Positions 211 through 38,697 of a stretch of 38,697 nucleotides of DNA are shown here, piece after piece (the stretch's first letter is position 1; the number at the start of each line of letters is the position of its first letter). The DNA lies in the IMG/VR virus record IMGVR_UViG_3300045988_121486, positions 1-38,697 of that record, one strand, 5' to 3'. Position numbers and translations under genes: made by a program. This DNA is from a virus. The notes beneath the pieces were generated by a model. That model saw only the letters and a program-made list of their open reading frames with translations. It was not told where the DNA came from and ran no database searches.

Positions 211-1461
211 TTATGTAGCAATTCGGTGTTCTTCAATAAATTTCATAAACTCTTTCTGACTTTTCTTGCCATCTTCTTTGCCAAAAAGGATAAGCCAGGC
301 TCTGTATTTTTCCCACGGCATATTTTCCGAGATAGGATTTGCAATATTATCAAAATATCCATCAATTTTATTATCAACCGCAGTACGGATTTCGGAGAAG
401 GTCTGGGTGTATACTTTTTTCATGATCTTGTCAGACTTCCAGCCTCCGCGCTCCTGAGCATACTTGTCCGGGATACGCAGAGCTGCCATAACGGATGCGT
501 TCAGGTGACGCAGATCATGAAAGGTCATATGCTTAAATCGGTGCTCGTCTTGGAACTTGATCCACTTGTGATAGATCTGGGCTTCGGTCAGGGTAACAAG
601 TCTGTCTCCTGGAACCTTATCAATCAGAGATTTGATATAGGGCGGAATCCTGTGAGTACGGTTACGGTATTTATTTTTTGCAATTTCTTTGCGGTGATCT
701 TTACCGCCCACAACAACCACAACCTCTGCAATGCGGATGTGATCCCCGGAGATTGATTTTGATTTTGTCAGTCCTCGGATCTCCGACATCGAGAAACTGA
801 GCCAGGCAGCCAGCAGGACCGCTAGCTCCAACTCGTTGCCTTTGATCGCTGGCAGAAGCGCCTCCGCCGGTATCAAATCCGGCACACGATCAGGGACTTC
901 GGGCAGTTCGATGTTGCGCAGGACATCATCCAGAGAGCTTGTATACTTACGGATTACGGATGCAATAAGGCTCCATTCGTTCTGAAGACGCTTTGGGGAA
1001 AGCGTCGCACCTTTTTTTCGGTTGCAAGGACGCTTGGATTCCATATTGACCGATTCCTGCAGGAGTTCCTTGTCCATATCTTTGACACAAATCTGCATCA
1101 GATCCTGAAAACCATTCCGCTGGATACACCTATAATCCTGGATAGTAGTAAGAGATCTGTTCAGGGCCAGCCGGGACTCAATGTATTTGTCAATCAACGC
1201 TGTGAGAGGGAGAAGAGTATAATCTACTTTCTTTTGCTTCGGCTGCTTTGCCAGTTCTTCTTCCTTCTGTAGAATAAATTGCGCTGCTGCAAGTTCTACC
1301 GCTTTTTTGGTGGGTCCGGTAATGGTTTTATATTTTCTTGTCGTCTTCTGTTCGCCATTCGGCAGCAGAACAGGAGTGCCGTCAGCATTATAGACCGGCT
1401 CTGAGTGACTGTATGGCTTAATACACCATGTTCCACTCGGCAGCTTATAGGGTGTTGCCAT
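211..1461 (-). CDS. int: Tyrosine site-specific integrase
   Basis: 416 aa. Box motifs SEIRGL, HDLRH, GGWKS and a downstream VYTQ tyrosine. SD GGAGGA lies upstream. Adjacent to the att core. Confidence 0.93.
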   Translation of the reverse strand: MATPYKLPSGTWCIKPYSHSEPVYNADGTPVLLPNGEQKTTRKYKTITGPTKKAVELAAAQFILQKEEELAKQPKQKKVDYTLLPLTALIDKYIESRLALNRSLTTIQDYRCIQRNGFQDLMQICVKDMDKELLQESVNMESKRPCNRKKGATLSPKRLQNEWSLIASVIRKYTSSLDDVLRNIELPEVPDRVPDLIPAEALLPAIKGNELELAVLLAAWLSFSMSEIRGLTKSKSISGDHIRIAEVVVVVGGKDHRKEIAKNKYRNRTHRIPPYIKSLIDKVPGDRLVTLTEAQIYHKWIKFQDEHRFKHMTFHDLRHLNASVMAALRIPDKYAQERGGWKSDKIMKKVYTQTFSEIRTAVDNKIDGYFDNIANPISENMPWEKYRAWLILFGKEDGKKSQKEFMKFIEEHRIAT

Positions 1462-12751: not shown

Positions 12752-12917
12752 GCTGCGAAAAGATGAAGATGATGTACAGCCGGGAGATGTCCTGATCTTA
12801 ATGGAGTGGGAAAACGGAGAATACACTGGCCGGACAGAAGTACGCAGGATCCGGTATGTGCTCCGGGATGTACCGGAATATGGACTGATGCAGGGTTACT
12901 GTATCATCGGATGGTAA
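12681..12917 (+). CDS. ASCH/DUF3850-like small protein
   Basis: KILPQYFQAVREEKKNFELRKDEDDVQPGDVLILMEW...YTGR pattern. Confidence 0.7.
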   Translation: MKTIEKKILPQYFQAVREEKKNFELRKDEDDVQPGDVLILMEWENGEYTGRTEVRRIRYVLRDVPEYGLMQGYCIIGW

Positions 12918-12931
12918 AGGAGGCAGCAGGG

Positions 12932-13435
12932 ATGGAATTACAGGAACTTACAAATAAAGTACTGAGATTATTTGATGCGAAGACAACCGAAGATCTGCCA
13001 GAGAAATTGCTGGCTGCAGTTCAAAATAATGATGAGACAGTGTATGAAAAATTTTGTGAGAATGTAAAAGATTTGAGCATCGACTGGTTACAAATGATTT
13101 TTCAGTATTACCATGCAGATAGAACGGAAAAAATGCAGGATTATACACCTAAGAGCTTAGCTGTGTTTATGGGAAAACTTGCAGGAAAATCAGATATAGT
13201 TACAGATATGTGCGCTGGATCAGGGGCATTGACAATTCAAAAATGGAATATGGACAAGAACCAAAAATTTGAATTATATGAATATGACAGCAAGGTAATG
13301 CCATTTCTACTGTTCAATATGGCAGTTAGAAATATTGAATGTAAAGTATATCATTCAGATGTATTGAAACAGGAAGTATTTCACACATACAAAATCGCAA
13401 GAGGAAAAAAATTCGGGAGATTTACGGAAATATGA
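12932..13435 (+). CDS. N6-adenine DNA methyltransferase, N-terminal part (AdoMet motif I only)
   Basis: DMCAGSGAL motif I and downstream YHSDVL, but no NPPY before the stop. Confidence 0.75.
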   Translation: MELQELTNKVLRLFDAKTTEDLPEKLLAAVQNNDETVYEKFCENVKDLSIDWLQMIFQYYHADRTEKMQDYTPKSLAVFMGKLAGKSDIVTDMCAGSGALTIQKWNMDKNQKFELYEYDSKVMPFLLFNMAVRNIECKVYHSDVLKQEVFHTYKIARGKKFGRFTEI

Positions 13436-14442
13436 AAATGAAGAAAACATTAATATCAAATCCACCGTATAACATGAAATGGGAAATACCGCCATTCGCA
13501 CAGATACAACCACGATTTTCTAAATGTTATGTAGTGCCACCTGCAAATAATGCGAATTATGCATTTGTACTAACAGGACTGGAAAAACATGACAGGTGTG
13601 TTTTCCTTCTGCCAGCCGCTATAATGAGCAGCAATCAAAAGGAGGAAAAGGCAATAAGAGAATGGTTAGTAGAGGAAAACCTGGTAGAAGCGGTGATTAT
13701 CTGCCCGGACAACATGTTTGAGTCCACTGGGGTGGGAACCTGTATTATTGTTTTGGACAAAAACAAAGAACATGTAACCACGGAAATGATAGACATTAGG
13801 AATAGATATGTAGAGGAAATCAGAGATCAAAAAGGGCAATATGGTGGAACCTCTCATACTAACAGAATCTATCAGAAAAAAATAAAGGTTATTCCGGAAA
13901 AAATAATGGAAGATGTGCTGGATGCAATCAGGGAAAGAAAAAGTATTCCTGATTTTTGCAAATCAGTAAGCATTGAAAAAATAAAAGAGGATAAATATTC
14001 TCTTTTGGCGAGTCACTATCTCGATATACAGGAAGAGGAAGTAAAGCATAGGAGCTATGAAGATATAGTAGAGGACCTAAACAGGGTGGTGAGAGAAAAA
14101 AACGCATGCAAGCTCACAATCAATGAAAGTCTGGCAAAAGGAATGGGATTCGATATCGAAATGTACAAAAATGATCAGCAAGATACAGGACTCAATGAAA
14201 TGCTTGTAAAATTGGGAGCACCACAGCTTGAAAAAGATAATTATTTTTCAACATCAAAGAATAAAAACGAAATCCGATTTGAGAACAACAGCAAAGATAT
14301 TCTGTCAAGCATCTTGGTGATGATTATGCAGACATGGAAACAGCACATATATTACCTGAATCAGCAAGAAAATAGATATTTGGCTGAATTGCGGGATGCA
14401 CTGATTCCGGATCTGATGAGTGGAAAAATTGATGTAACTTAG
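13432..14442 (+). CDS. N6-adenine DNA methyltransferase, C-terminal part (NPPY catalytic motif plus putative target-recognition region)
   Basis: Begins MKMKKTLISNPPYN. The frame is open from 13345 and is -1 relative to the upstream part. Confidence 0.75.
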   Translation: MKMKKTLISNPPYNMKWEIPPFAQIQPRFSKCYVVPPANNANYAFVLTGLEKHDRCVFLLPAAIMSSNQKEEKAIREWLVEENLVEAVIICPDNMFESTGVGTCIIVLDKNKEHVTTEMIDIRNRYVEEIRDQKGQYGGTSHTNRIYQKKIKVIPEKIMEDVLDAIRERKSIPDFCKSVSIEKIKEDKYSLLASHYLDIQEEEVKHRSYEDIVEDLNRVVREKNACKLTINESLAKGMGFDIEMYKNDQQDTGLNEMLVKLGAPQLEKDNYFSTSKNKNEIRFENNSKDILSSILVMIMQTWKQHIYYLNQQENRYLAELRDALIPDLMSGKIDVT

Positions 14443-14789: not shown

Positions 14790-15467
14790 ATGGATTTTGG
14801 ATATTACAACATGGATTGCATGGATGGGATGAAAGAGTTCCCGGATGGTTACTTTGACCTTGCGATTGTGGATCCACCGTATGGGATTGGAGAAAATGGG
14901 GATAAAAACCATACAAGAGGTAAACTGGCAAAAGCAAAGGATTACAAGAGTTTTAGCGGAATGGATATAAATCCACCAAACGAAAAATATTTCGATGAAC
15001 TGTTTAGAGTGTCAAAAAATCAGATTATTTTTGGGGCAAATCATTTTATAAGCAAAATGCCGTTTGATAGTAGTTGTTGGATTGTTTGGGATAAAGATAA
15101 TGGAAATACTGATTTTGCTGATTGTGAACTTGCATGGACTTCGTTCAGTACTGCAGTAAGGAGGATTAAATATAGGTGGAATGGAATGCTTCAGCAAAAT
15201 ATGAAACACAAAGAAAACCGTATTCATCCCACACAAAAACCTGTGGCACTATATGAATGGCTTCTGAACCGCTATGCAAAGCCCGGAGACATTATCCTAG
15301 ACACACATGTAGGCAGTGCCAGCAGCTTGATAGCCTGCTACAGAACCAACCATCCATATGTTGGCTTTGAACTGGACAAGCATTATTATGATTTGTCCAA
15401 AAAGAGATTAGATGCAGAAATGGCACAAATGCGATTATCTGATTTTATGCCGGGGGTGATGCCATGA
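14790..15467 (+). CDS. Beta-class DNA methyltransferase (N6-adenine/N4-cytosine family, DPPY)
   Basis: IVDPPYGIGE, then HPTQKP and LDTHVGSASS. This is the circularly permuted order typical of the N6_N4 methylase family. Confidence 0.88.
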   Translation: MDFGYYNMDCMDGMKEFPDGYFDLAIVDPPYGIGENGDKNHTRGKLAKAKDYKSFSGMDINPPNEKYFDELFRVSKNQIIFGANHFISKMPFDSSCWIVWDKDNGNTDFADCELAWTSFSTAVRRIKYRWNGMLQQNMKHKENRIHPTQKPVALYEWLLNRYAKPGDIILDTHVGSASSLIACYRTNHPYVGFELDKHYYDLSKKRLDAEMAQMRLSDFMPGVMP

Positions 15468-16183: not shown

Positions 16184-16570
16184 ATGAAGAAAGAAGAAGC
16201 TATTTATTGTTTAAAGGCTCAGAGTGAACGACACTCAGAGGTTTGCGAAGAATGTCCTATGTACGGAAAAACAGGTGTGGATCATTGCAGTGAGGATGTA
16301 TTTCAGATGGCAATTATCGCCTTACAAAATCAGCAGGTGTGGATCCCGGCAAGTGAGCGGTTGCCAGAAGAGGGCGAAGCTGTTCTCGTGTGGTATGAGT
16401 ATTTCAGATATGGTGACTACAATCGCATGTATCAGACCTATGGGATAGGGTATCAATACGAAGGACATTGGAGTGGAGATGTTTATGGGGTAAAGGCAAA
16501 ATGCATTGCCTGGATGCCCCTGCCGGAGCAGTACCGTGGGGAAAGCGAGGTAGAAGATGGAAAAGTGTAA
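16184..16570 (+). CDS. DUF551-like hypothetical protein
   Basis: WIPASERLPEEGEAVLVW pattern. Preceded by a 5-codon mini-ORF (16170-16187) that overlaps the start. Confidence 0.55.
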   Translation: MKKEEAIYCLKAQSERHSEVCEECPMYGKTGVDHCSEDVFQMAIIALQNQQVWIPASERLPEEGEAVLVWYEYFRYGDYNRMYQTYGIGYQYEGHWSGDVYGVKAKCIAWMPLPEQYRGESEVEDGKV

Positions 16571-16756
16571 GAGCTGAAATTTAGCGAAGGAGTGATAGAA
16601 AAAGCATAATAAAAAGACCAGTGCAGAGGGCCTGCAATCGATACCAATAAAACAGCGGTAGACCATCCGACCAAAGATAGCATCTACCGCTTACCTGCTT
16701 GCCAGTATCATACCATAGGATCAGCTGGCACGCAATGAGAAAATGAGGTACAGCCT

Positions 16757-17758
16757 ATGACAAAGACAGACCTGATCAACGACATTGCATTTGAAATGAG
16801 TAACATTTTGACGCCGGAACAGATTGACAAGGTAAAGATAATATTTTTGGTAAAGATGCAGGACTTTGATCTTGCCGAGACCAGACAGCTTCCGATGGTG
16901 GAAGAACATGACAATGAATGGCTTATGAAGCGATACTGGATCGATGGGGCGGCAGTAGGCCTGAAGGAATCAACCATGCGGGGATATCTTGGAAGAATAA
17001 AAGAGTTCTTCGATTTCACGGGAAAAAATTATAAGTATATTACAGCACAGGACATAACAGATTTCCTTGCTATCAAAGCATACCGTGATCATATCAGCCA
17101 GAATTATAAGTCTACGCTATACCGGTACCTCTGCACATTTTTCGGCTGGGCTTTCCGGAAAAAGCATATCGTTGATAATATTGCAGATGGAGTGGACAAG
17201 GTAAAGCAGATTCAGGCACAAAAGAAGCGGTTGACAGATGAAGAGGTGGAAGATATCCGTGATGTATTGGATACACCAAAGGAAAAAGCACTGTTTGAAC
17301 TGATGCTTTGCACCGGCATGAGAGTAGGCGAAATATCCAATCTCAATATTTCGGATCTGGATCTGACGCACAGGACTGTCAACATCTGGGGAGAGAAGAG
17401 CAATAAATATCGCACCGGTATGTTGACACCTAAAGCAGTAAAAGCATTGCGGAATTATATCGGTGGGCGTCCTGGGACAGACCCTGTATTTTTGGCTGAC
17501 AGGGCGCCTCATAATCGTATGCGGGAGTACGGCATCGAGAAGCTGACCAAGGAAATGGCAGTCCGCGGTGGTGTGACGCGGTTGACGGCAACGGTCCATA
17601 TATACCGCAAGACCTTTGCGTCCGTCCTGTACCGTAAGACAGGGGATGTGATGCTGGTAAGTAAGCTCCTCGGACATTCCAACCCAGAGATTACAGTAAA
17701 ATATTATCTGGTAGATGATATCGAGGAGATGCAGAACAAATACAACAAAGTGGCATAA
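16757..17758 (+). CDS. Second tyrosine recombinase (XerC/D-like or Rci-like), internal to the prophage
   Basis: GMRVGEI (Arg I), HIYRKTFAS (HxxR), LLGHSN and VKYY (Tyr). 333 aa. Confidence 0.85.
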   Translation: MTKTDLINDIAFEMSNILTPEQIDKVKIIFLVKMQDFDLAETRQLPMVEEHDNEWLMKRYWIDGAAVGLKESTMRGYLGRIKEFFDFTGKNYKYITAQDITDFLAIKAYRDHISQNYKSTLYRYLCTFFGWAFRKKHIVDNIADGVDKVKQIQAQKKRLTDEEVEDIRDVLDTPKEKALFELMLCTGMRVGEISNLNISDLDLTHRTVNIWGEKSNKYRTGMLTPKAVKALRNYIGGRPGTDPVFLADRAPHNRMREYGIEKLTKEMAVRGGVTRLTATVHIYRKTFASVLYRKTGDVMLVSKLLGHSNPEITVKYYLVDDIEEMQNKYNKVA

Positions 17759-17772
17759 TTGCACCGGTGCAA
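17759..17772. repeat. Dispersed palindrome TTGCACCGGTGCAA, copy C (starts the base after the recombinase stop)
   Basis: Exact 14-mer, 30 nt upstream of the late-regulator start. Confidence 0.9.
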
Positions 17773-17802
17773 CTCCGGTGTGGCAGAAAGGAGAAAGCAT
17801 CG

Positions 17803-18231
17803 ATGCAGAGAATTAACAGAACGAGCTGGAGGATCATTGAAACTATATTATTACGTTATCCCCAGCGCAAGAAAGAATATGAGGAGTACATATCGGACAT
17901 TATGGCATCGCCAGCGGGAGGCAGCAGTCGTCCGTTGGACCCTGTCAGGGAAATGGACAAGGCACAATCTGTCACAGAAGCAAAGGCCCTGAAGATGACC
18001 TCGGTGTATCATGATAGGATCAAAAAAGAGATAGAGGCGGTGGAATTTGCCTATAATTCTCTCAAACCGGAGGAACAGAGAGTAATCCGGATCAGATACT
18101 GGAGCAAGGGCCTCAGAGCACCGATCCCGTACCTTAAGATTGGTGGGGCATCATACAGTGAGCGGCAGATGAAACGGATCGTGTTCAAGACAATCGAACA
18201 GATTGGTAGGTACATTGGAGAGTTAAAGTAA
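17803..18231 (+). CDS. Putative late-gene transcriptional activator (RinA/ArpU-like, sigma region-4-type)
   Basis: Lies immediately upstream of terS. RIIETILLRYPQRKKEYEEY...EQRVIRIRYW...SERQMKRIVFKTIEQIGRYIG. Confidence 0.55.
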   Translation: MQRINRTSWRIIETILLRYPQRKKEYEEYISDIMASPAGGSSRPLDPVREMDKAQSVTEAKALKMTSVYHDRIKKEIEAVEFAYNSLKPEEQRVIRIRYWSKGLRAPIPYLKIGGASYSERQMKRIVFKTIEQIGRYIGELK

Positions 18232-18292
18232 AAGATGGCATGATTTCGCATGTCAAATGTGATAATATAGTATCGTGATAAATTAGTGACAA

Positions 18293-18322
18293 GGCAATGC
18301 AGATAGCTGCGTTGCCTTTTTT
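18293..18322 (+). terminator. Intrinsic terminator
   Basis: GGCAATGCAG/CTGCGTTGCC stem followed by T6. Confidence 0.7.
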
Positions 18323-18364: not shown

Positions 18365-18856
18365 ATGGCAAAAGGCAAATATGAGTATTGGCTGACACCG
18401 GAAGGCTTGCTAAAGCTGGAAGGATGGGCAAGAGATGGATTAACAGATGAGCAGATTGCTACAAATATGGGAATTCGCAGAGAAACGTTATATGCATGGT
18501 GTAAAAAGTATACTAACATTTCTAACACCCTAAAAAGGGGAAAGGAAGTAGTTGATAGAGAAATAGAACGGGCTCTATATAATAATGCGGCTGGATACAA
18601 TTATACTGAAAAGGTTATATGTACGAAAAAAGAAGTCCTATATGAAAATGGCAAGAGAATCAAGGAAACGGTAGAACCGGTAGTTGTCGAAGTAGAGAAA
18701 CATAAACCCGGAGAAACCACAGCCCAGATATTCTGGTTAAAGAACCGGAAACCGGATAAATGGAGAGACAAACAGGATGTCCAGATCTCCGGAGAGCTTA
18801 AATCCGAACAGAGTAAACTGGATGACCTGATCAGACAGATGCGTGGTGATGGGTAA
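18365..18856 (+). CDS. terS: Terminase small subunit
   Basis: HTH LTDEQIATNMGIRRETLYAWCKKY and FWLKNRKPDKWRDK. Precedes terL. Confidence 0.85.
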   Translation: MAKGKYEYWLTPEGLLKLEGWARDGLTDEQIATNMGIRRETLYAWCKKYTNISNTLKRGKEVVDREIERALYNNAAGYNYTEKVICTKKEVLYENGKRIKETVEPVVVEVEKHKPGETTAQIFWLKNRKPDKWRDKQDVQISGELKSEQSKLDDLIRQMRGDG

Positions 18857-34217: not shown

Positions 34218-34907
34218 ATGGCAGCACCGGAGGGATACAAGACTCTCGGAAAAATCGGAATATCTTACAAAGGAGATTACAACTCTAATATTGCATATGA
34301 GCGTTTGGATGCGGTATATCACAATGGCAGTACATATTTGGCAATTAAAGATGCACCGGATGGAGCACCGAGGGATGATAAGCTCAACTGGATCTATTTG
34401 GCCAAGGGATTTAGTGGAGACATCGGATACTCAGAAATCGCGTTTACTGAGGCGGAGAACCGCGAGAACATTAATACGGGCGAGAGCGTAAAGACGGTCT
34501 TTGGCAAGATTAAAAAGTTTTTTGCAGACTTGACCGCACCGGCCTTTGCGCAGATGATCACATCCAAGGATGATCTGCTGGCCACCAAAGCCACCGGCTA
34601 TGTCCCGGATGCCAAGGCGGTGGCAGATGCGGTTACTGATGTAACTGGCAAGTTAGGTAAGTATAAATTATCTACGTGTGGATTCTTTTCCATTGATCTA
34701 GTTGTTGGATCAAATATAGTTTCAGTGGATAAGTTAGTGTCTGGTAGTTTGCCTCAAACACCATATACTCTATTCACCGTTATATCACAAGGAACGTCTT
34801 TAAATAGGTTAATAGATATATTTTTTGATGGTGGTAATAATGTAGTGGCATATACAAATGTAGCTCAAAGATATAGCATAATGTGGGTGTCTTTCGAATT
34901 GACTTAA
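34218..34907 (+). CDS. Tail fibre / receptor-binding protein: constant N-terminus (to GKL, 34655) plus currently attached C-terminal cassette A
   Basis: N-terminal YKGDYNSNIAYERLDAVYHNGSTYLAIKD fibre-like pattern. Composition becomes AT-rich exactly after 34655. Confidence 0.75.
   Translation: MAAPEGYKTLGKIGISYKGDYNSNIAYERLDAVYHNGSTYLAIKDAPDGAPRDDKLNWIYLAKGFSGDIGYSEIAFTEAENRENINTGESVKTVFGKIKKFFADLTAPAFAQMITSKDDLLATKATGYVPDAKAVADAVTDVTGKLGKYKLSTCGFFSIDLVVGSNIVSVDKLVSGSLPQTPYTLFTVISQGTSLNRLIDIFFDGGNNVVAYTNVAQRYSIMWVSFELT
34642..34655 (+). repeat. Crossover-like site S1, TAACTGGCAAGTTA (encodes TGKL)
   Basis: 14-mer identical to 37980-37993. The 10-nt core TGGCAAGTTA is shared with all four sites. 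Confidence 0.8.
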
Positions 34908-35593
34908 GTACTAAATAAAGCCTTGGTAAGTGTAATATAACCTCCAACATTGGTGCTATCAGTAGCTGAATATGAAAACAATTGTAATCGCAAATAATGG
35001 TTTCCACTTAAAGAACTACAATTATATGATGTGTTTATTGTGTATGTTGTTTTCTCCTTATCATAATTCGGATGAGCATATAAAGTAGTAACTTCAACTC
35101 CAGAAGCATTTAACAACTTAACTTTAGGTCGATAATCATCAGAACCATAAGGATTACCTGTTACTTTATAAGATGATCCCTGCAAAGTTAAAGTTTTAAA
35201 ACTAGATAAGTTGATTGCTGGAGAAGTATAATACACATAAGAACTCATTCCGGTTTGTGATGCGATTTTTAGTGTAACAGCACTACCATTAGAGGAAGCA
35301 CTTGGCGTAATAGCTCCTCCAGCAGTACCAACCGTCCACCCACTTCTTATCAAAGAATAAGTAGCAGGATTTTGTGATGCTACAACAGCTATTAATTGGT
35401 TAAATGTCATATTGGCGTTTACTAATCCGCTTGGTTTTAAAGCATTATATAGTGCAGCCGCATACGATGCCTCACTGCTAAAAGGGATAACTGTATCTGC
35501 ACCTGCCGGATTCGTAATAATGTAGCCATATTCTCCGTTAGAATTCACGCCGAATCTAAAAGGAACATTATCTGAGGCAATTAACTTGCCATT
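34904..35593 (-). CDS. Start-less alternative tail-fibre C-terminal cassette B (NGKL-IASDNVPFRFGVNSNGEYGY...)
   Basis: 229 codons open from the core. In-frame TGA at 35606-35608. No ATG or SD. The track's GTG at 35548 lies inside a continuous sequence. Shares TTAA stops with cassette A. Confidence 0.65.
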   Translation of the reverse strand, partial: NGKLIASDNVPFRFGVNSNGEYGYIITNPAGADTVIPFSSEASYAAALYNALKPSGLVNANMTFNQLIAVVASQNPATYSLIRSGWTVGTAGGAITPSASSNGSAVTLKIASQTGMSSYVYYTSPAINLSSFKTLTLQGSSYKVTGNPYGSDDYRPKVKLLNASGVEVTTLYAHPNYDKEKTTYTINTSYNCSSLSGNHYLRLQLFSYSATDSTNVGGYITLTKALFST

Positions 35594-35595
35594 TA
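35582..35595 (-). repeat. Crossover-like site S2, TAAATGGCAAGTTA (minus sense)
   Basis: Inverted relative to S1 and read as NGKL. Confidence 0.8.
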
Positions 35596-35649
35596 GTGTA
35601 GTAGATCAGACGGCGGGTGCAGCCGTAAGAGCACCAGAAAGGAGCCCTC

Positions 35650-36165
35650 ATGGGTTACATAAAGTTTAAAAATAAAAAGACCGTATCAAAGGTCATCGTA
35701 TCAGAGGAGAGCCCTCATGTGATCCGCATCACCGGAGACGGCCTCACAATAAATACTGACGGCTTCCGGCTCTATCTGGATGAGGGATGCAAATACCCGC
35801 TGGACAACGGCGAGTATGAGGCATACACTACTTTATTCCGGGAGGGCGACGGCTGGTATGAGTTGTCCGATGACGGATCCGTCTACACCGAGCCGATTGC
35901 ACCGGTGCAACCTGAGCCCACAGAAGAGGAGCTTACGGAGTTGGGCAGACAGCAGCAGATCAGTCAGCTGACTGCGCAGATCGATGACCTCAAGGCCAGA
36001 ATCGCCGCCAGTGACTATAAGGTTATCAAGACCTATGAGTATACTCTCCTCGGTGAGCAGACCGAGTATGATATGGAGGCTGTCCATGCAGAGAGACAGG
36101 CTCTCCGGGATCAGATCAATACATTGGAGACACAACTGGCAGATCTGACCGCAACCGCAGAGTAG
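35650..36165 (+). CDS. Hypothetical tail/lysis-junction protein with a coiled-coil C-terminus
   Basis: 171 aa with SD AAAGGAG. Contains palindrome copy F in its linker. Confidence 0.55.
   Translation: MGYIKFKNKKTVSKVIVSEESPHVIRITGDGLTINTDGFRLYLDEGCKYPLDNGEYEAYTTLFREGDGWYELSDDGSVYTEPIAPVQPEPTEEELTELGRQQQISQLTAQIDDLKARIAASDYKVIKTYEYTLLGEQTEYDMEAVHAERQALRDQINTLETQLADLTATAE
35897..35910. repeat. Dispersed palindrome TTGCACCGGTGCAA, copy F (inside coding sequence, encodes IAPVQP)
   Basis: Exact 14-mer. Confidence 0.9.
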
Positions 36166-36281
36166 GAGGCTGCTTATGAGAGTGAGAGACGGTCCTTAAA
36201 CAATAAAACATAGTAACCAAGAGCCAAGAGCCGATTACTTCCTTCAGGAGGTGACCGGCTCATTATATTAAGGAGACTGAG

Positions 36282-36527
36282 ATGGCAACAGAAATCATTG
36301 TGGCACTGATCGGCTGCGCGGGAAGTGCGGCAGGCGCCTTCTGCGGAATTCTGGTCAATACAAAATTGACTACATATCGGTTGGAGCAGCTCGAAAAAAA
36401 GGTGGATAAGCATAACACAGTCATAGAACGCACATTCAAGCTAGAAGAAGCGCAGGCAGTTATGCAGGAACAAATTAAAGTAGCAAATCACAGAATTGAA
36501 GATTTGGAAAGAGAGGTAAAAGAATGA
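36282..36527 (+). CDS. Small membrane and coiled-coil protein (lysis accessory, XhlA-like?)
   Basis: N-terminal TM segment followed by a coiled coil. Precedes the holin. Confidence 0.45.
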   Translation: MATEIIVALIGCAGSAAGAFCGILVNTKLTTYRLEQLEKKVDKHNTVIERTFKLEEAQAVMQEQIKVANHRIEDLEREVKE

Positions 36528-36862
36528 GCACAAGTACAATCATGGTAATTATTTTGGCAGTGCTGACGGCACTGGTAGTAGGAACATTTTTATGGGTATA
36601 CATCCGCGATAAGACGATTGATGAGATCAGAGTGGATGTGTATCACCTGTTTCTGAAGGCAGAACATGCATTTAAAGAGTCGGGTTCCGGAAAGCAGAAG
36701 ATGAAGTATGTAGTAAGTCAGGCAAGAAAACTGTTGCCTTCATGGCTGCAGTATTTTGTCACTGATGAGTTCTTAGAAAGCGTTATAGAAAAGTGGTTCC
36801 AGGCAGTGAAGGATCTGCTGGATGACGGCAAGCTGAATGGATCAGAGGAGGAAGAAGAATGA
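36524..36862 (+). CDS. Holin (LL-H-like)
   Basis: N-terminal TM IMVIILAVLTALVVGTFLWVYI, then a GSGKQKMKYV pattern. Directly upstream of the endolysin. Confidence 0.65.
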   Translation: MSTSTIMVIILAVLTALVVGTFLWVYIRDKTIDEIRVDVYHLFLKAEHAFKESGSGKQKMKYVVSQARKLLPSWLQYFVTDEFLESVIEKWFQAVKDLLDDGKLNGSEEEEE

Positions 36863-37869
36863 AAAAGGCATTATCAAAAGGACCGGATATTTCCAAACAC
36901 AATGGAAATGTTAATATCAAAAAAGTGCGTGATGCCGGATATAAGCCTATAGGTATTCGGGCTGGTTACGGAAAAAATAACGTCGACGAGAAGTATGTGA
37001 GCAATGCATTGGCCTGCTTTAATCTGGCTGTGCAGGTGCTGCTCTACTGGTTTTCATATGCCTACACCGCAGCAATGGCAGTGGCAGAGGCAGAGTTTTG
37101 TATCACTCAGGCTAAAAAGTACTGGAGCAAATGCCCTATTGCATTTGATTTTGAGTACGACTCTGTAAATTATGCGCGTAAGAGAGGCGTGAATGTCACA
37201 AAACAGCTGGCTACAGATATGGCAATTGCATTTTTGCAAAAGGTCAAAGCAGCCGGTTATCTCCCGGTGATCTATACCAACAAAGATTACCTTAATAAAT
37301 ATTTTGACATGAACCGGATCGTAAAAGCACTGGGAAAGGTATACGTATGGTATGCACGCTATACGTCCAGTCTGTCAGCGGCGGAGATTGACCTTGCGGA
37401 TATTTGGCAGTATACATCATCAGGATCTGTCCCTGGAATAAGTGGCAAGTGTGATATCAATATCTTTTATACGGACTTTGAAATGGTATCAGTACCGGCG
37501 CAAAGAGAAGAAACCTGTAATATTAATATTCAGAACTTCCAGAAAGCTGCAAATGCAGACGGTTATCGGGATGAGCAGGGAAGAAAGCTGGCTGAAGATG
37601 GCAAAGATGGCAAGAATACTCGGTATGTAAAACAGCAGATCTGCCTGCAGGCGAAGAGATTCGGGCTGAGCTACAAGGTTGGCTCCAGGGGAGCGGTAGT
37701 TAAGTGGTGGCAGACACGTTGCAATGAGATCTTAGGACATGACCAGAACGTAGATGGTAAGTATGGAAAAGACGCAAGGAAAGAGACCATTGCAGTGCAG
37801 GACAAGCTGAACCTGGTAAAAGATGGAAAAGTAGGATACGACAGTATCCAGGCGGCATTCTATAATTGA
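36859..37869 (+). CDS. Endolysin: GH25 muramidase plus C-terminal peptidoglycan-binding repeat
   Basis: GPDISKHNGNVN...GIRAGYG...FDFEYD...WQYTSSGSVPGISGKCDINIFY. C-terminal VDGKYGKDARKETIAVQ. Confidence 0.9.
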   Translation: MKKALSKGPDISKHNGNVNIKKVRDAGYKPIGIRAGYGKNNVDEKYVSNALACFNLAVQVLLYWFSYAYTAAMAVAEAEFCITQAKKYWSKCPIAFDFEYDSVNYARKRGVNVTKQLATDMAIAFLQKVKAAGYLPVIYTNKDYLNKYFDMNRIVKALGKVYVWYARYTSSLSAAEIDLADIWQYTSSGSVPGISGKCDINIFYTDFEMVSVPAQREETCNINIQNFQKAANADGYRDEQGRKLAEDGKDGKNTRYVKQQICLQAKRFGLSYKVGSRGAVVKWWQTRCNEILGHDQNVDGKYGKDARKETIAVQDKLNLVKDGKVGYDSIQAAFYN

Positions 37870-37937
37870 CGGATCAGCAGAAGGTATGATACTCTAAAAT
37901 TACCCATTGAATCCTTCTCATGGTTTATCATGGGAAA

Positions 37938-37976
37938 AGAGTGGCGAACAAGAAGGGGTGTTCGCCACTCTTTTTA
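37938..37976 (+). terminator. Strong intrinsic terminator after the endolysin
   Basis: Perfect 13-bp stem AGAGTGGCGAACA/TGTTCGCCACTCT followed by a T-run. Confidence 0.85.
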
Positions 37977-37979
37977 TAT

Positions 37980-37993
37980 TAACTGGCAAGTTA
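37980..37993 (+). repeat. Crossover-like site S3, TAACTGGCAAGTTA
   Basis: Identical to S1. Starts 4 nt after the terminator T-run. Confidence 0.8.
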
Positions 37994-38317
37994 GAGACTA
38001 AAGAAGAATTTGTCAATGAAGGCACTATTGTTTCTAAAACCGGTAACCATGTGACATTGAATGGATCACAATATATTCAGAGTGTTACATACACGATCCC
38101 AGGTTGGGGAACTTTAAAAATAGGTACAATGTCCAAGCAATATGTTCCATCAAGAGCATTGGTTTTTTACACTCAGGTTAGGAATTCTGATACATCGAGA
38201 ATCTATTACATCGGCATTATTATAAGTATCAATGGAGATATTTCATTATATAATGCTGCGTCTGATGTGGAAATCACATTCTCGCAGATTGGTTTTTCAT
38301 TTGGCTGGGACGTGTAA
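37982..38317 (+). CDS. Start-less silent tail-fibre C-terminal cassette C (TGKL-ETKEEFVNEG...GWDV)
   Basis: In frame with GKL. The only upstream start candidate (TTG 37907) has no SD and would be translated through the terminator hairpin. Confidence 0.6.
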   Translation, partial: TGKLETKEEFVNEGTIVSKTGNHVTLNGSQYIQSVTYTIPGWGTLKIGTMSKQYVPSRALVFYTQVRNSDTSRIYYIGIIISINGDISLYNAASDVEITFSQIGFSFGWDV

Positions 38318-38320
38318 ATT

Positions 38321-38581
38321 TTAATTTTTACGGCAAATAAATTCTATAGTAGCCTGTTCGGTGACTGCACGTGAGGATATTGTAATAACTCCAACATAGT
38401 TGCTGTTATTGTCATAATTACAAAATATTAGATCCGCATGTGGGAAATTAGTGTATCCGTTTACTGCAATTACAGTGTATCCATCAGGTATTTCTGGTGC
38501 ATTAAAATATCCAATTTTTAGGGTTGTATCAAAATCAACAGTTGGATCAATTTTAATAATTTTTAATTCTAACTTGCCATT
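38321..38581 (-). CDS. Start-less silent tail-fibre C-terminal cassette D (NGKL-ELKIIKIDPTVDF...CRKN)
   Basis: 86 codons open from the core. In-frame TAA 5 codons upstream. No ATG. Not in the ORF track for that reason. Confidence 0.6.
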   Translation of the reverse strand, partial: NGKLELKIIKIDPTVDFDTTLKIGYFNAPEIPDGYTVIAVNGYTNFPHADLIFCNYDNNSNYVGVITISSRAVTEQATIEFICRKN

Positions 38582-38583
38582 TA
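38570..38583 (-). repeat. Crossover-like site S4, TAAATGGCAAGTTA (minus sense)
   Basis: 14-mer identical to S2 and inverted relative to S1 and S3. Confidence 0.8.
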
Positions 38584-38614
38584 CAGAGAAAATAAATTAC
38601 AGGAAACAACTTGA

Positions 38615-38635
38615 TGCAACACAAAATGCAACATG
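38615..38635 (+). repeat. Two more TGCAAC(A)(C/T)(A/G) arm-type motifs at 12-bp spacing beside the right att copy
   Basis: TGCAACACA at 38615 and TGCAACATG at 38627, in the same orientation as the left array. Confidence 0.55.
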
Positions 38636-38668
38636 AAATAGAAAAACCCTTGAAAAATCAAGGGTTTT
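38636..38668 (-). terminator. Phage-borne intrinsic terminator for the reconstituted tRNA gene
   Basis: Minus sense: AAAACCCTT/AAGGGTTTT stem followed by TCTATTT, starting 4 nt after the tRNA 3' end. Confidence 0.65.
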
Positions 38669-38671
38669 AAG

Positions 38672-38697
38672 AAGCGCGAGACGGGGATCGAACCCGC
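38672..38697 (-). tRNA. 3' end of a tRNA gene (T-arm plus acceptor strand) continuing beyond the window; right att core
   Basis: Minus sense GCGGG-TTCGATC-CCCGT-CTCGCGC-T. The anticodon is outside the window, so the identity is unknown. Confidence 0.7.

Follow-up and report, generated by a model that had tools for sequence, protein, structure and literature searches.

Which enzyme turns round the tips of a phage tail fibre when no recombinase gene lies beside them? This question is raised by the prophage in IMG/VR virus record IMGVR_UViG_3300045988_121486, whose 38,697 nucleotides are called the window below. Four short sites (S1 to S4) near its right-hand end border alternative tip cassettes of a fibre gene, and the gene of a second tyrosine recombinase, named rec (16757-17758, plus strand), lies in the middle of the window, apart from the integrase next to the attachment site. 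Judged from comparisons with related phages, rec is the best and most economical candidate for the invertase of this shufflon, acting in trans, a reading to which we give about an even chance. Tail-fibre inversion is a classic route by which phages switch hosts, and to our knowledge nearly all of the characterised cases involve serine invertases encoded beside their sites in proteobacterial phages.

The fibre-tip cassettes and their crossover sites

The fibre-tip gene comprises a constant N-terminal part and four alternative tips, which form two modules with the lysis genes between them:

34218-34655, plus strand: constant N-terminal part of the fibre-tip gene (phrog_5073, tail fibre), ending in ...T-G-K-L, which is encoded by S1
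34642-34655, plus strand: site S1, TAACTGGCAAGTTA
34656-34907, plus strand: cassette c1, the currently expressed tip as judged from its frame with the fibre gene
34904-35581, minus strand: cassette c2, a silent inverted tip whose open reading frame begins at S2 in the G-K-L frame
35582-35595, minus strand: site S2, TAAATGGCAAGTTA on the minus strand
35596-37979: S2-S3 segment with an XkdW-like gene (35650-36165), holins and endolysin, lying within the largest invertible unit
37980-37993, plus strand: site S3, TAACTGGCAAGTTA
37994-38317, plus strand: cassette c3, a silent tip
38321-38569, minus strand: cassette c4, a silent inverted tip
38570-38583, minus strand: site S4 (TAAATGGCAAGTTA on the minus strand); the arm repeats of the integrase near attR are about 90 bp away

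The element TGGCAAGTTA occurs exactly four times in the window, at 34646 (+), 35582 (-), 37984 (+) and 38570 (-), and each copy is followed by an open reading frame in the G-K-L frame. Across 154 sites from relatives, the conserved core is the 14-bp sequence TAA[A/C]TGGCAAGTTA, with variable flanks; the four sites and their cassettes, first noticed in a reading of the letters of the window alone (the sequence-only reading), are real. A query with the constant fibre part found 130 viral loci, the best 80 of which were examined. In these 80 loci the constant part is 67-97% conserved, and most of them show the layout S1 (plus), S2 (minus), lysis block, S3 (plus) and S4 (minus).

The centre of the core is uniform across all sites of one phage and differs between phages, being TGGCA in most, TGATA in contig 3300010278_000010 and locus L329, TAGGA in loci L105, L248 and L351, and TAGCA in L061. 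Position 4 of the core (A or C) stays on the constant side, C being common at plus sites and present at 1 of 61 minus sites, while position 11 (G or T) moves with a particular cassette, as seen at S1, S2 and S4. This fixed position and this mobile one imply that the exchange probably takes place within a window of about 6 bp, roughly TGGCAA. A match that is needed over more than two bases would agree better with tyrosine recombinases, whose overlap is 6-8 bp, than with serine invertases, which cross over within 2 bp.

The cassettes are found in different states in different relatives. In L337, the stretch between S1 and S2 is exactly flipped, so that the fibre gene is joined to c2 (98%), after which c1 (100%) comes in inverted orientation; similarly, c2 is joined to the fibre gene in the plus orientation in L109/L341, as it is in L337. 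Cassette c1 lies in the second module in L093, L096 and L098. In L059/L284, whose recombinase is 100% identical to rec, a 100%-identical c3 is fused to the fibre gene, and in L421 c3 is joined to the fibre gene and directly followed by c4, both at 100% and both in the first module. Finally, the lysis genes are inverted relative to the fibre gene in L097 and L104, as an inversion between S1 and S4 predicts; since the holin and endolysin genes are inside the S2-S3 segment, fibre switching can flip the lysis cassette with respect to the late operon. Many contigs end about 50-150 nucleotides past S1, which is consistent with the assembly breaks typical of a heterogeneous junction. Going by the arrangements compared here, the cassettes are a genuine shufflon that rearranges in nature.

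A separate arrangement is seen in L066/L243 (contig 3300029385_000038), where one strand carries the fibre gene and its upstream neighbour, the other strand carries the tape-measure and Dit genes, and four S sites lie between them. It is either a very large inversion at S sites or an assembly chimera at the repeats.

rec encodes an intact Xer-like tyrosine recombinase

The rec gene encodes 333 residues (ATG start, TAA stop), which comprise an N-terminal extension of about 65 residues, a SAM-like core-binding domain at residues 68-135 and a catalytic domain that matches PF00589 (Phage_integrase) over residues 157-319 with 105.3 bits (cut-off 27.1, E 4e-30). Alignment to the structures of XerA and XerD places the catalytic residues at R189, K214, H281, R284, H307 and Y316/Y317. 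This catalytic set is invariant in an alignment of 119 sequences (rec and 118 relatives) that includes paralogues only 27% identical to rec, and Y317 is the invariant tyrosine. The proposal that rec is a complete R-H-R-Y recombinase is thereby borne out: by every mark legible in its sequence, rec is an intact tyrosine recombinase.

As for its family, the nearest solved structures are XerA, an XerC-like protein and XerD, and both PHROG matches (phrog_1 and phrog_216) are labelled 'integrase'. Among the NCBIfam models, rec is likewise nearest to XerA, XerC and XerD, yet it scores far under every equivalog cut-off (149.4 bits against 220 for XerA, 99.7 against 329.6 for XerD, and 98.8 against 335 for XerC). 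It is also under the cut-offs of the FimB/FimE-type invertases NF007370 and NF007371 (37.6 against 221 and 23.7 against 222 bits, respectively). Nor does it resemble lambda-type integrases: only SAM-like core-binding domains match, the domain scan matches no arm-binding domain in rec, and the gene is internal. A single allele of the recombinase already accounts for 290 indexed blocks of a public assembly collection.

A phmmer search of every stop-to-stop frame of at least 50 residues in the window found two recombinases, rec and the integrase next to the attachment site, and no serine recombinase; Pfam scans of 30 open reading frames of the window found no resolvase domain (PF00239). The integrase (211-1461, minus strand, 416 residues) is a canonical tyrosine enzyme and a separate protein from rec, and 26-bp att repeats stand at both ends of the prophage. 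Both the presence of this integrase and the lack of a serine invertase had been claimed in the sequence-only reading, as had the place of rec in the genome: its neighbours are a DUF551 gene on one side and, on the other, a weak RinA-like regulator with the small-subunit terminase gene (terS) behind it, and rec ends 16.9 kb ahead of S1, close to the 17 kb that had been given as the distance to the cassettes.

Co-occurrence of the slot recombinase with the S sites

The position of rec, at the end of the early genes and directly upstream of the regulator and terS, is referred to here as the slot, and rec holds it in more than 100 loci. In the best 80 of the 130 fibre loci, no recombinase open reading frame is present within 10 kb of the fibre gene. 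Anchors between the slot region and the fibre region were used to obtain single loci holding both. About 29 viral contigs have both the slot and the fibre gene, and all of them carry a slot recombinase together with S sites. In several lineages the slot is filled by a paralogue of rec, called rec27 below. The tally is as follows:

29 single loci: full-length rec, S sites present
3 single loci: full-length rec27, S sites present
1 single locus (L401): full-length rec27, divergent fibre with a degenerate S1 only
0 single loci: full-length rec or rec27, fibre S sites absent
53 more distant relatives (Blautia, Lacrimispora, Hungatella and others): no slot recombinase and no fibre module

Loci L489 and L490 were excluded from this tally, as they end about 60 nucleotides short of the slot; going by their synteny with L499 and L500, the gene there would be of the rec27 type. 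Among the 37 loci that show the slot and have a TerL 95-99% identical to that of the window, 34 have a rec homologue (73-100%), two have a 27%-identical tyrosine recombinase and one has none.

Another finding is that rec is present in three structural backbones, A (the window type), B and E. In group E, which has other portal, capsid and tape-measure genes, rec and the shufflon are on the same loci, as in A. In group B, rec is 89% identical and directly upstream of terS, and fibre loci carry the shufflon; the two are not seen on one locus. A family member with 60% identity occupies the same slot in another phage. With regard to hosts, Waltera acetigignens and a metagenome-assembled genome of Lachnospiraceae each carry rec along with the shufflon, and W. 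intestinalis is a host by annotation.

The integrase behaves differently. The window-type integrase is found in only 12 viral contigs, against at least 130 with the fibre module, and the same S sites are accompanied by the window-type tyrosine integrase (L223, L209), by a large serine integrase of 516 residues (contigs 097111, 108590, 039601 and 106153) or by a different tyrosine integrase of 359 residues (L227), all of which keep rec. The occurrence of identical S sites with three unrelated integrases means that the integrase next to the attachment site is not the general invertase.

Weighing rec against other recombinases

In the proposed explanation, rec would be an active armless Xer-like recombinase, encoded at the end of the early genes and before the late regulator and the packaging genes, that works in trans, its targets being four 14-bp sites at a distance of about 17-21 kb. 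Within each site, TAA[A/C] on the left would be followed by a crossover region of about 6 bp (TGGCAA) and then, on the right, by [G/T]TTA, which moves together with the cassette. When two sites of opposite orientation recombine, the intervening DNA would be inverted and one of the four tips (c1-c4) would be joined, at ...G-K-L, to the constant N-terminal part of the fibre; the largest inversions would also turn round the lysis genes. We infer, from sequence comparison, that rec rather than a host enzyme catalyses these inversions. The full proposal is more tentative, and we would put it at somewhat less than an even chance. It describes a trans-acting phage shufflon whose invertase, supplied by either of two 27%-identical Xer-like families, would be encoded 14-18 kb away, where the early genes give way to the late ones, and would be preceded by a structured RNA leader; four tips in two modules around the lysis genes would make host-range switching flip the lysis cassette as well; and the system, abundant in Lachnospiraceae of the human gut, would be the first phage fibre inversion with a remote phage-encoded tyrosine recombinase.

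Several findings weigh against rec as the invertase. The paralogue rec27, which takes the same slot in several lineages, is only 25-28% identical to rec; its members are 88-97% identical to one another and 37-40% identical to the internal 'integrase' of phiCs5676-1 (examples are L213:15803-16786, L493:204-1229, L499:1646-2668 and L401:1019-2056). Phages with rec27 share the arms of the S sites, and the centre is the canonical TGGCA in L493/L494 and TGATA in 3300010278_000010. A 27%-identical paralogue with identical S sites means that enzyme and site do not covary. If rec and rec27 are both invertases, two proteins of 27% identity recognise one site; if neither is, the slot has some other function. 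A covariation of recombinase family and site had been considered, as the sole group-A rec27 contig with visible fibre sites had four TGATA sites. This link between rec27 and TGATA was dismissed as a coincidence, since L493/L494 have rec27 with TGGCA and L351 has a 75%-identical rec with a TAGGAAT core; judged by the latter, core centre and enzyme vary independently of each other.

The same reading is weakened by the losses of rec, which has disappeared at least three times independently with the S sites intact. Contigs 039812 and OOCJ01000041 have a small open reading frame and a tRNA-like sequence in place of rec (L232:9900-10360); L330, L337 and L341 keep only the last 55 rec codons, L341 also being without c1 and S2; and in L333 and L335 the codon W131 has changed from TGG to the stop TGA. 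These losses fit a dispensable accessory function and do not discriminate between the hypotheses. Furthermore, rec is 14-18 kb from its proposed targets, while the genes of Gin, Cin, Min, Rci and Rin all flank theirs. On the circular map, a single uninterrupted block runs from the fibre tip through the lysis genes, attP, the integrase and the early genes to rec, so that co-inheritance across backbones could reflect a single swap of structural genes, and the co-occurrence is largely explained by common descent. Lastly, full-length relatives of rec on plasmids and megaplasmids (25-28% identical) are annotated as generic XerA-like proteins, and a 28-40% relative is present in Clostridium phage phiCs5676-1, which is without an evident shufflon. 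The check suggested in the sequence-only reading, whether rec homologues and S-like repeats occur together, came out in favour of rec in the tally (32 full-length-slot loci with S sites and none without, L401 having a degenerate S1); it is qualified by shared ancestry, by the relative in phiCs5676-1 and by the XerA-like plasmid relatives. Its choice of rec as invertase fared in the same mixed way, being favoured by an intact enzyme that occurs together with the shufflon and not by any covariation of enzyme and site, nor by the lineages that lost rec and kept the sites.

An enzyme of the host might instead flip the cassettes in trans, leaving rec with an unrelated job. S sites that are identical whether the slot holds rec or rec27, perfect sites that remain in lineages without rec, and cassettes without a neighbouring recombinase in every locus examined (best 80 of 130) all agree with such an enzyme, and trans-acting master invertases are known in gut bacteria, for example Mpi of Bacteroides, which is cited in a paper on bifidophages that also describes an inversion locus there without a flanking recombinase (PMC6109161). 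On the other hand, the shufflon module moves between backbones and hosts (Waltera, UBA5895), throughout which the same host enzyme would be needed, and the shufflon is present in every locus with an intact slot recombinase, bar the degenerate S1 of L401. Moreover, the phage fibre-inversion systems characterised to date (Gin, Cin, Min, Rin) encode their own invertase. We regard a host enzyme as unlikely, though it retains real weight. A smaller weight, and a rather low one, is given to rec as an Xer/Cre-like resolvase of replicating phage-genome multimers, with its site elsewhere and no part in fibre switching. For this role speak the best family matches (XerA, XerC and XerD), the XerA-like annotation of the 25-28% plasmid and megaplasmid relatives, the rolling-circle-type Rep module of the phage, and a slot that either paralogue fills whatever the S sites. 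Against it, rec scores under all Xer equivalog cut-offs, is dispensable in several lineages, and is missing from more distant relatives with homologous head genes; moreover, no dif/lox-like site (11-13-bp inverted arms with a 6-8-bp spacer) was found in the rec flanks or in repeat scans, no whole-genome search with a dif model having been made, and the changes in the rec leader are RNA-like.

The integrase had been named as the alternative invertase, since S4 lies beside attP in the circular form. It does belong to the tyrosine recombinases, and S4 is about 90 bp from its arm-type repeats and the att core, yet the att core is unlike the S core and the distribution given above, with the same sites and cassettes beside large serine or unrelated 359-residue tyrosine integrases and with 12 contigs set against at least 130, contradicts the claim and makes this reading very improbable. 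Equally little credence is due to rec as a second integrase for an alternative attachment site, or as a degenerate remnant. The PHROG and Pfam label is 'integrase' and armless integrases do exist, but rec is without an arm-binding domain, and in this prophage as in more than 100 loci it is internal and flanked by phage genes, never lying at a phage-host junction. A gene that is always internal excludes a second-integrase role for this element, and the strict conservation of its catalytic residues shows that rec is not a remnant.

Two observations belong to the relatives used in this comparison. In L493 and L494, a gene for a TIR-domain protein follows rec27. In phiCs5676-1 (L002:12801-12816 / 13912-13927), a 16-nucleotide inverted repeat connects a minor tail protein gene, at its 3' end, with an open reading frame of opposite orientation; both partners share the peptide IIE(K/T)N, and an IS200-like transposase adjoins. 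Possibly, this phage with its internal Xer-like recombinase has a tail-gene inversion system of another kind.

Comparison with known inversion systems

The closest counterpart is the Rin shufflon of Bifidobacterium prophages (Bb423phi1 and relatives), with an XerD-like armless recombinase that its authors predicted to be the first phage-encoded tyrosine invertase; the assignment of Rin is thus itself a prediction, and a second inversion locus in these bifidophages is without a flanking recombinase (PMC6109161). By architecture, Rin can be likened to rec, since both are phage-encoded, armless, Xer-like and distinct from the integrase of their own prophage. In both systems, short crossover repeats (the 11-bp rix and the 14-bp core here) fuse a constant N-terminal part in frame to alternative C-terminal receptor-binding cassettes, and inversion variants are seen between prophages. 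The differences are that rin flanks its cassettes whereas rec is 16.9 kb away, that the sites are unrelated in sequence (TTCCCTAACCC in Rin and TAAATGGCAAGTTA here), and that the cassettes of the window are in two modules either side of the lysis genes.

The Rci shufflon of R64/IncI1 is similar in that a tyrosine recombinase (in the window, a candidate one) acts at multiple inverted, partly conserved sites and brings C-terminal segments onto one constant gene. A conserved core with variable flanks is compatible with asymmetric sites of the Rci type. R64 differs in being plasmid-borne, in switching the PilV pilus adhesin and in the position of rci, which adjoins the shufflon, whereas rec is non-adjacent. 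The sfx sites are also longer, with a 7-bp spacer and a 12-bp arm, and the 25 plasmid matches listed for rec include none to a plasmid that bears Rci. Gin, Cin, Min and Pin (of Mu, P1, p15B and e14) reach the same outcome, as a swap of the tail-fibre C-terminus changes the host range; however, they are serine recombinases with adjacent genes, 26-bp sites, a 2-bp crossover and a Fis-dependent enhancer, whereas the window has no resolvase-domain protein and its core changes in concert over more than 2 bp. XerA, XerC and XerD share the architecture of rec and give its best profile matches, from which rec departs by scores below the cut-offs, the extra N-terminal extension of about 65 residues, its phage-borne nature and the lack of a dif-like site in the rec flanks and in repeat scans.

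It is by the lack of adjacency between recombinase and cassettes that the system departs from every named family. What sets it apart from Rin and Rci is the remote (candidate) enzyme, the split of the cassettes around the lysis genes and the unrelated site sequence. Tail-fibre genes are among the recurrent targets in a survey of programmed inversions (PMC9881135). The phage family described here is very common in Lachnospiraceae of the human gut (Waltera and relatives). If rec is the invertase, tyrosine-type fibre shufflons with a remote enzyme would be widespread in gut Firmicutes, annotation that seeks only adjacent recombinases would miss them, and one gene with a 14-bp site would offer a simple, testable handle on how plastic the host range of gut prophages is. 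Contigs often break off at S1, which agrees with assemblies of these phages that fragment at the fibre gene.

The rec leader and a repeated palindrome

The region directly upstream of rec is non-coding and conserved:

16590-16756, plus strand: rec leader (about 150 nucleotides conserved), with hairpins P2 (about 16654-16691) and P3 (about 16696-16744)

In an alignment of 29 distinct relatives, compensatory changes are present in 4 of the 16 predicted pairs, and no Rfam family matches the leader. A role as a recombination site was considered and rejected, as the hairpins show RNA-like compensatory changes and have the wrong geometry. From its pattern of substitutions, the leader looks like a control element at the RNA level, and it may be a cis-regulatory RNA that governs expression of the recombinase.

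On the other side of rec, a 14-bp perfect palindrome, TTGCACCGGTGCAA, is encountered. It occurs seven times in the window (at 1622, 7064, 11153, 17759, 18330, 23844 and 35897) against 0.12 expected; most copies are at the starts of genes or operons, and equivalent positions are kept in related phages. It is not present in the phages of group E, which carry rec. Two copies flank the RinA-like regulator and give an 18-bp perfect inverted repeat directly 3' of rec, and a strong terminator (18291-18318) is located ahead of the copy that precedes terS. An inverton of the late regulator was considered and rejected: the bracketing repeats are two copies of the sevenfold palindrome, the regulator is not once inverted in more than 100 loci, and group E has rec without the palindrome. 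The palindrome is probably an operator at the starts of transcription units or a late-promoter element.

Gene order and ends of the prophage

The window is an integrated prophage. In addition to the fibre region, its features in order are as follows:

1-26 and 38672-38697: 26-bp direct repeats (att)
After the integrase: lysogeny module with an M78 peptidase and an HTH repressor
Early genes: Rep_ORF2/G2P-like protein, RNase H, DUF7666 and PcfJ-like protein
Three methyltransferase open reading frames, then the DUF551 gene (16184-16570)
17767-18231: weak RinA-like regulator, downstream of rec
18365-18856: terS, after the RinA-like regulator
Open reading frames at the usual head and tail position, assigned by gene order (the protein-family scan covered the tail-fibre open reading frames only)
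The fibre gene with its cassettes, then open reading frames read as lysis genes (by reading, without a family scan)
Two further cassettes (c3 and c4), immediately before the right-hand att repeat

No close phage relative was found in INPHARED, the best match being 29% identical. The reverse complement of the att repeat resembles the 3' end of a tRNA, and ARAGORN found no complete tRNA within the window. A further repeat, ATGCAACATGAA, has three copies beside attL (160-209) and two beside attR (38614-38639); these are probably the arm-type binding sites of the integrase.

Among the methyltransferase genes, an N6-adenine methyltransferase is divided over two open reading frames (12806-13435 and 13432-14442) that overlap by 4 nucleotides. 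The profile is matched from position 13 to 121 by the first and from 127 to 309 by the second; a frameshift, a split gene or a programmed event could each account for the arrangement. In addition, an 18-nucleotide inverted repeat with 94% complementarity (14105-14122 / 15119-15136) has its arms in two methyltransferase genes, 996 nucleotides apart, and by a rough estimate it is unlikely to have arisen by chance. A phase-variable methyltransferase was considered as the target of rec and set aside, the repeat between the methyltransferase genes being a single 18-nucleotide one.

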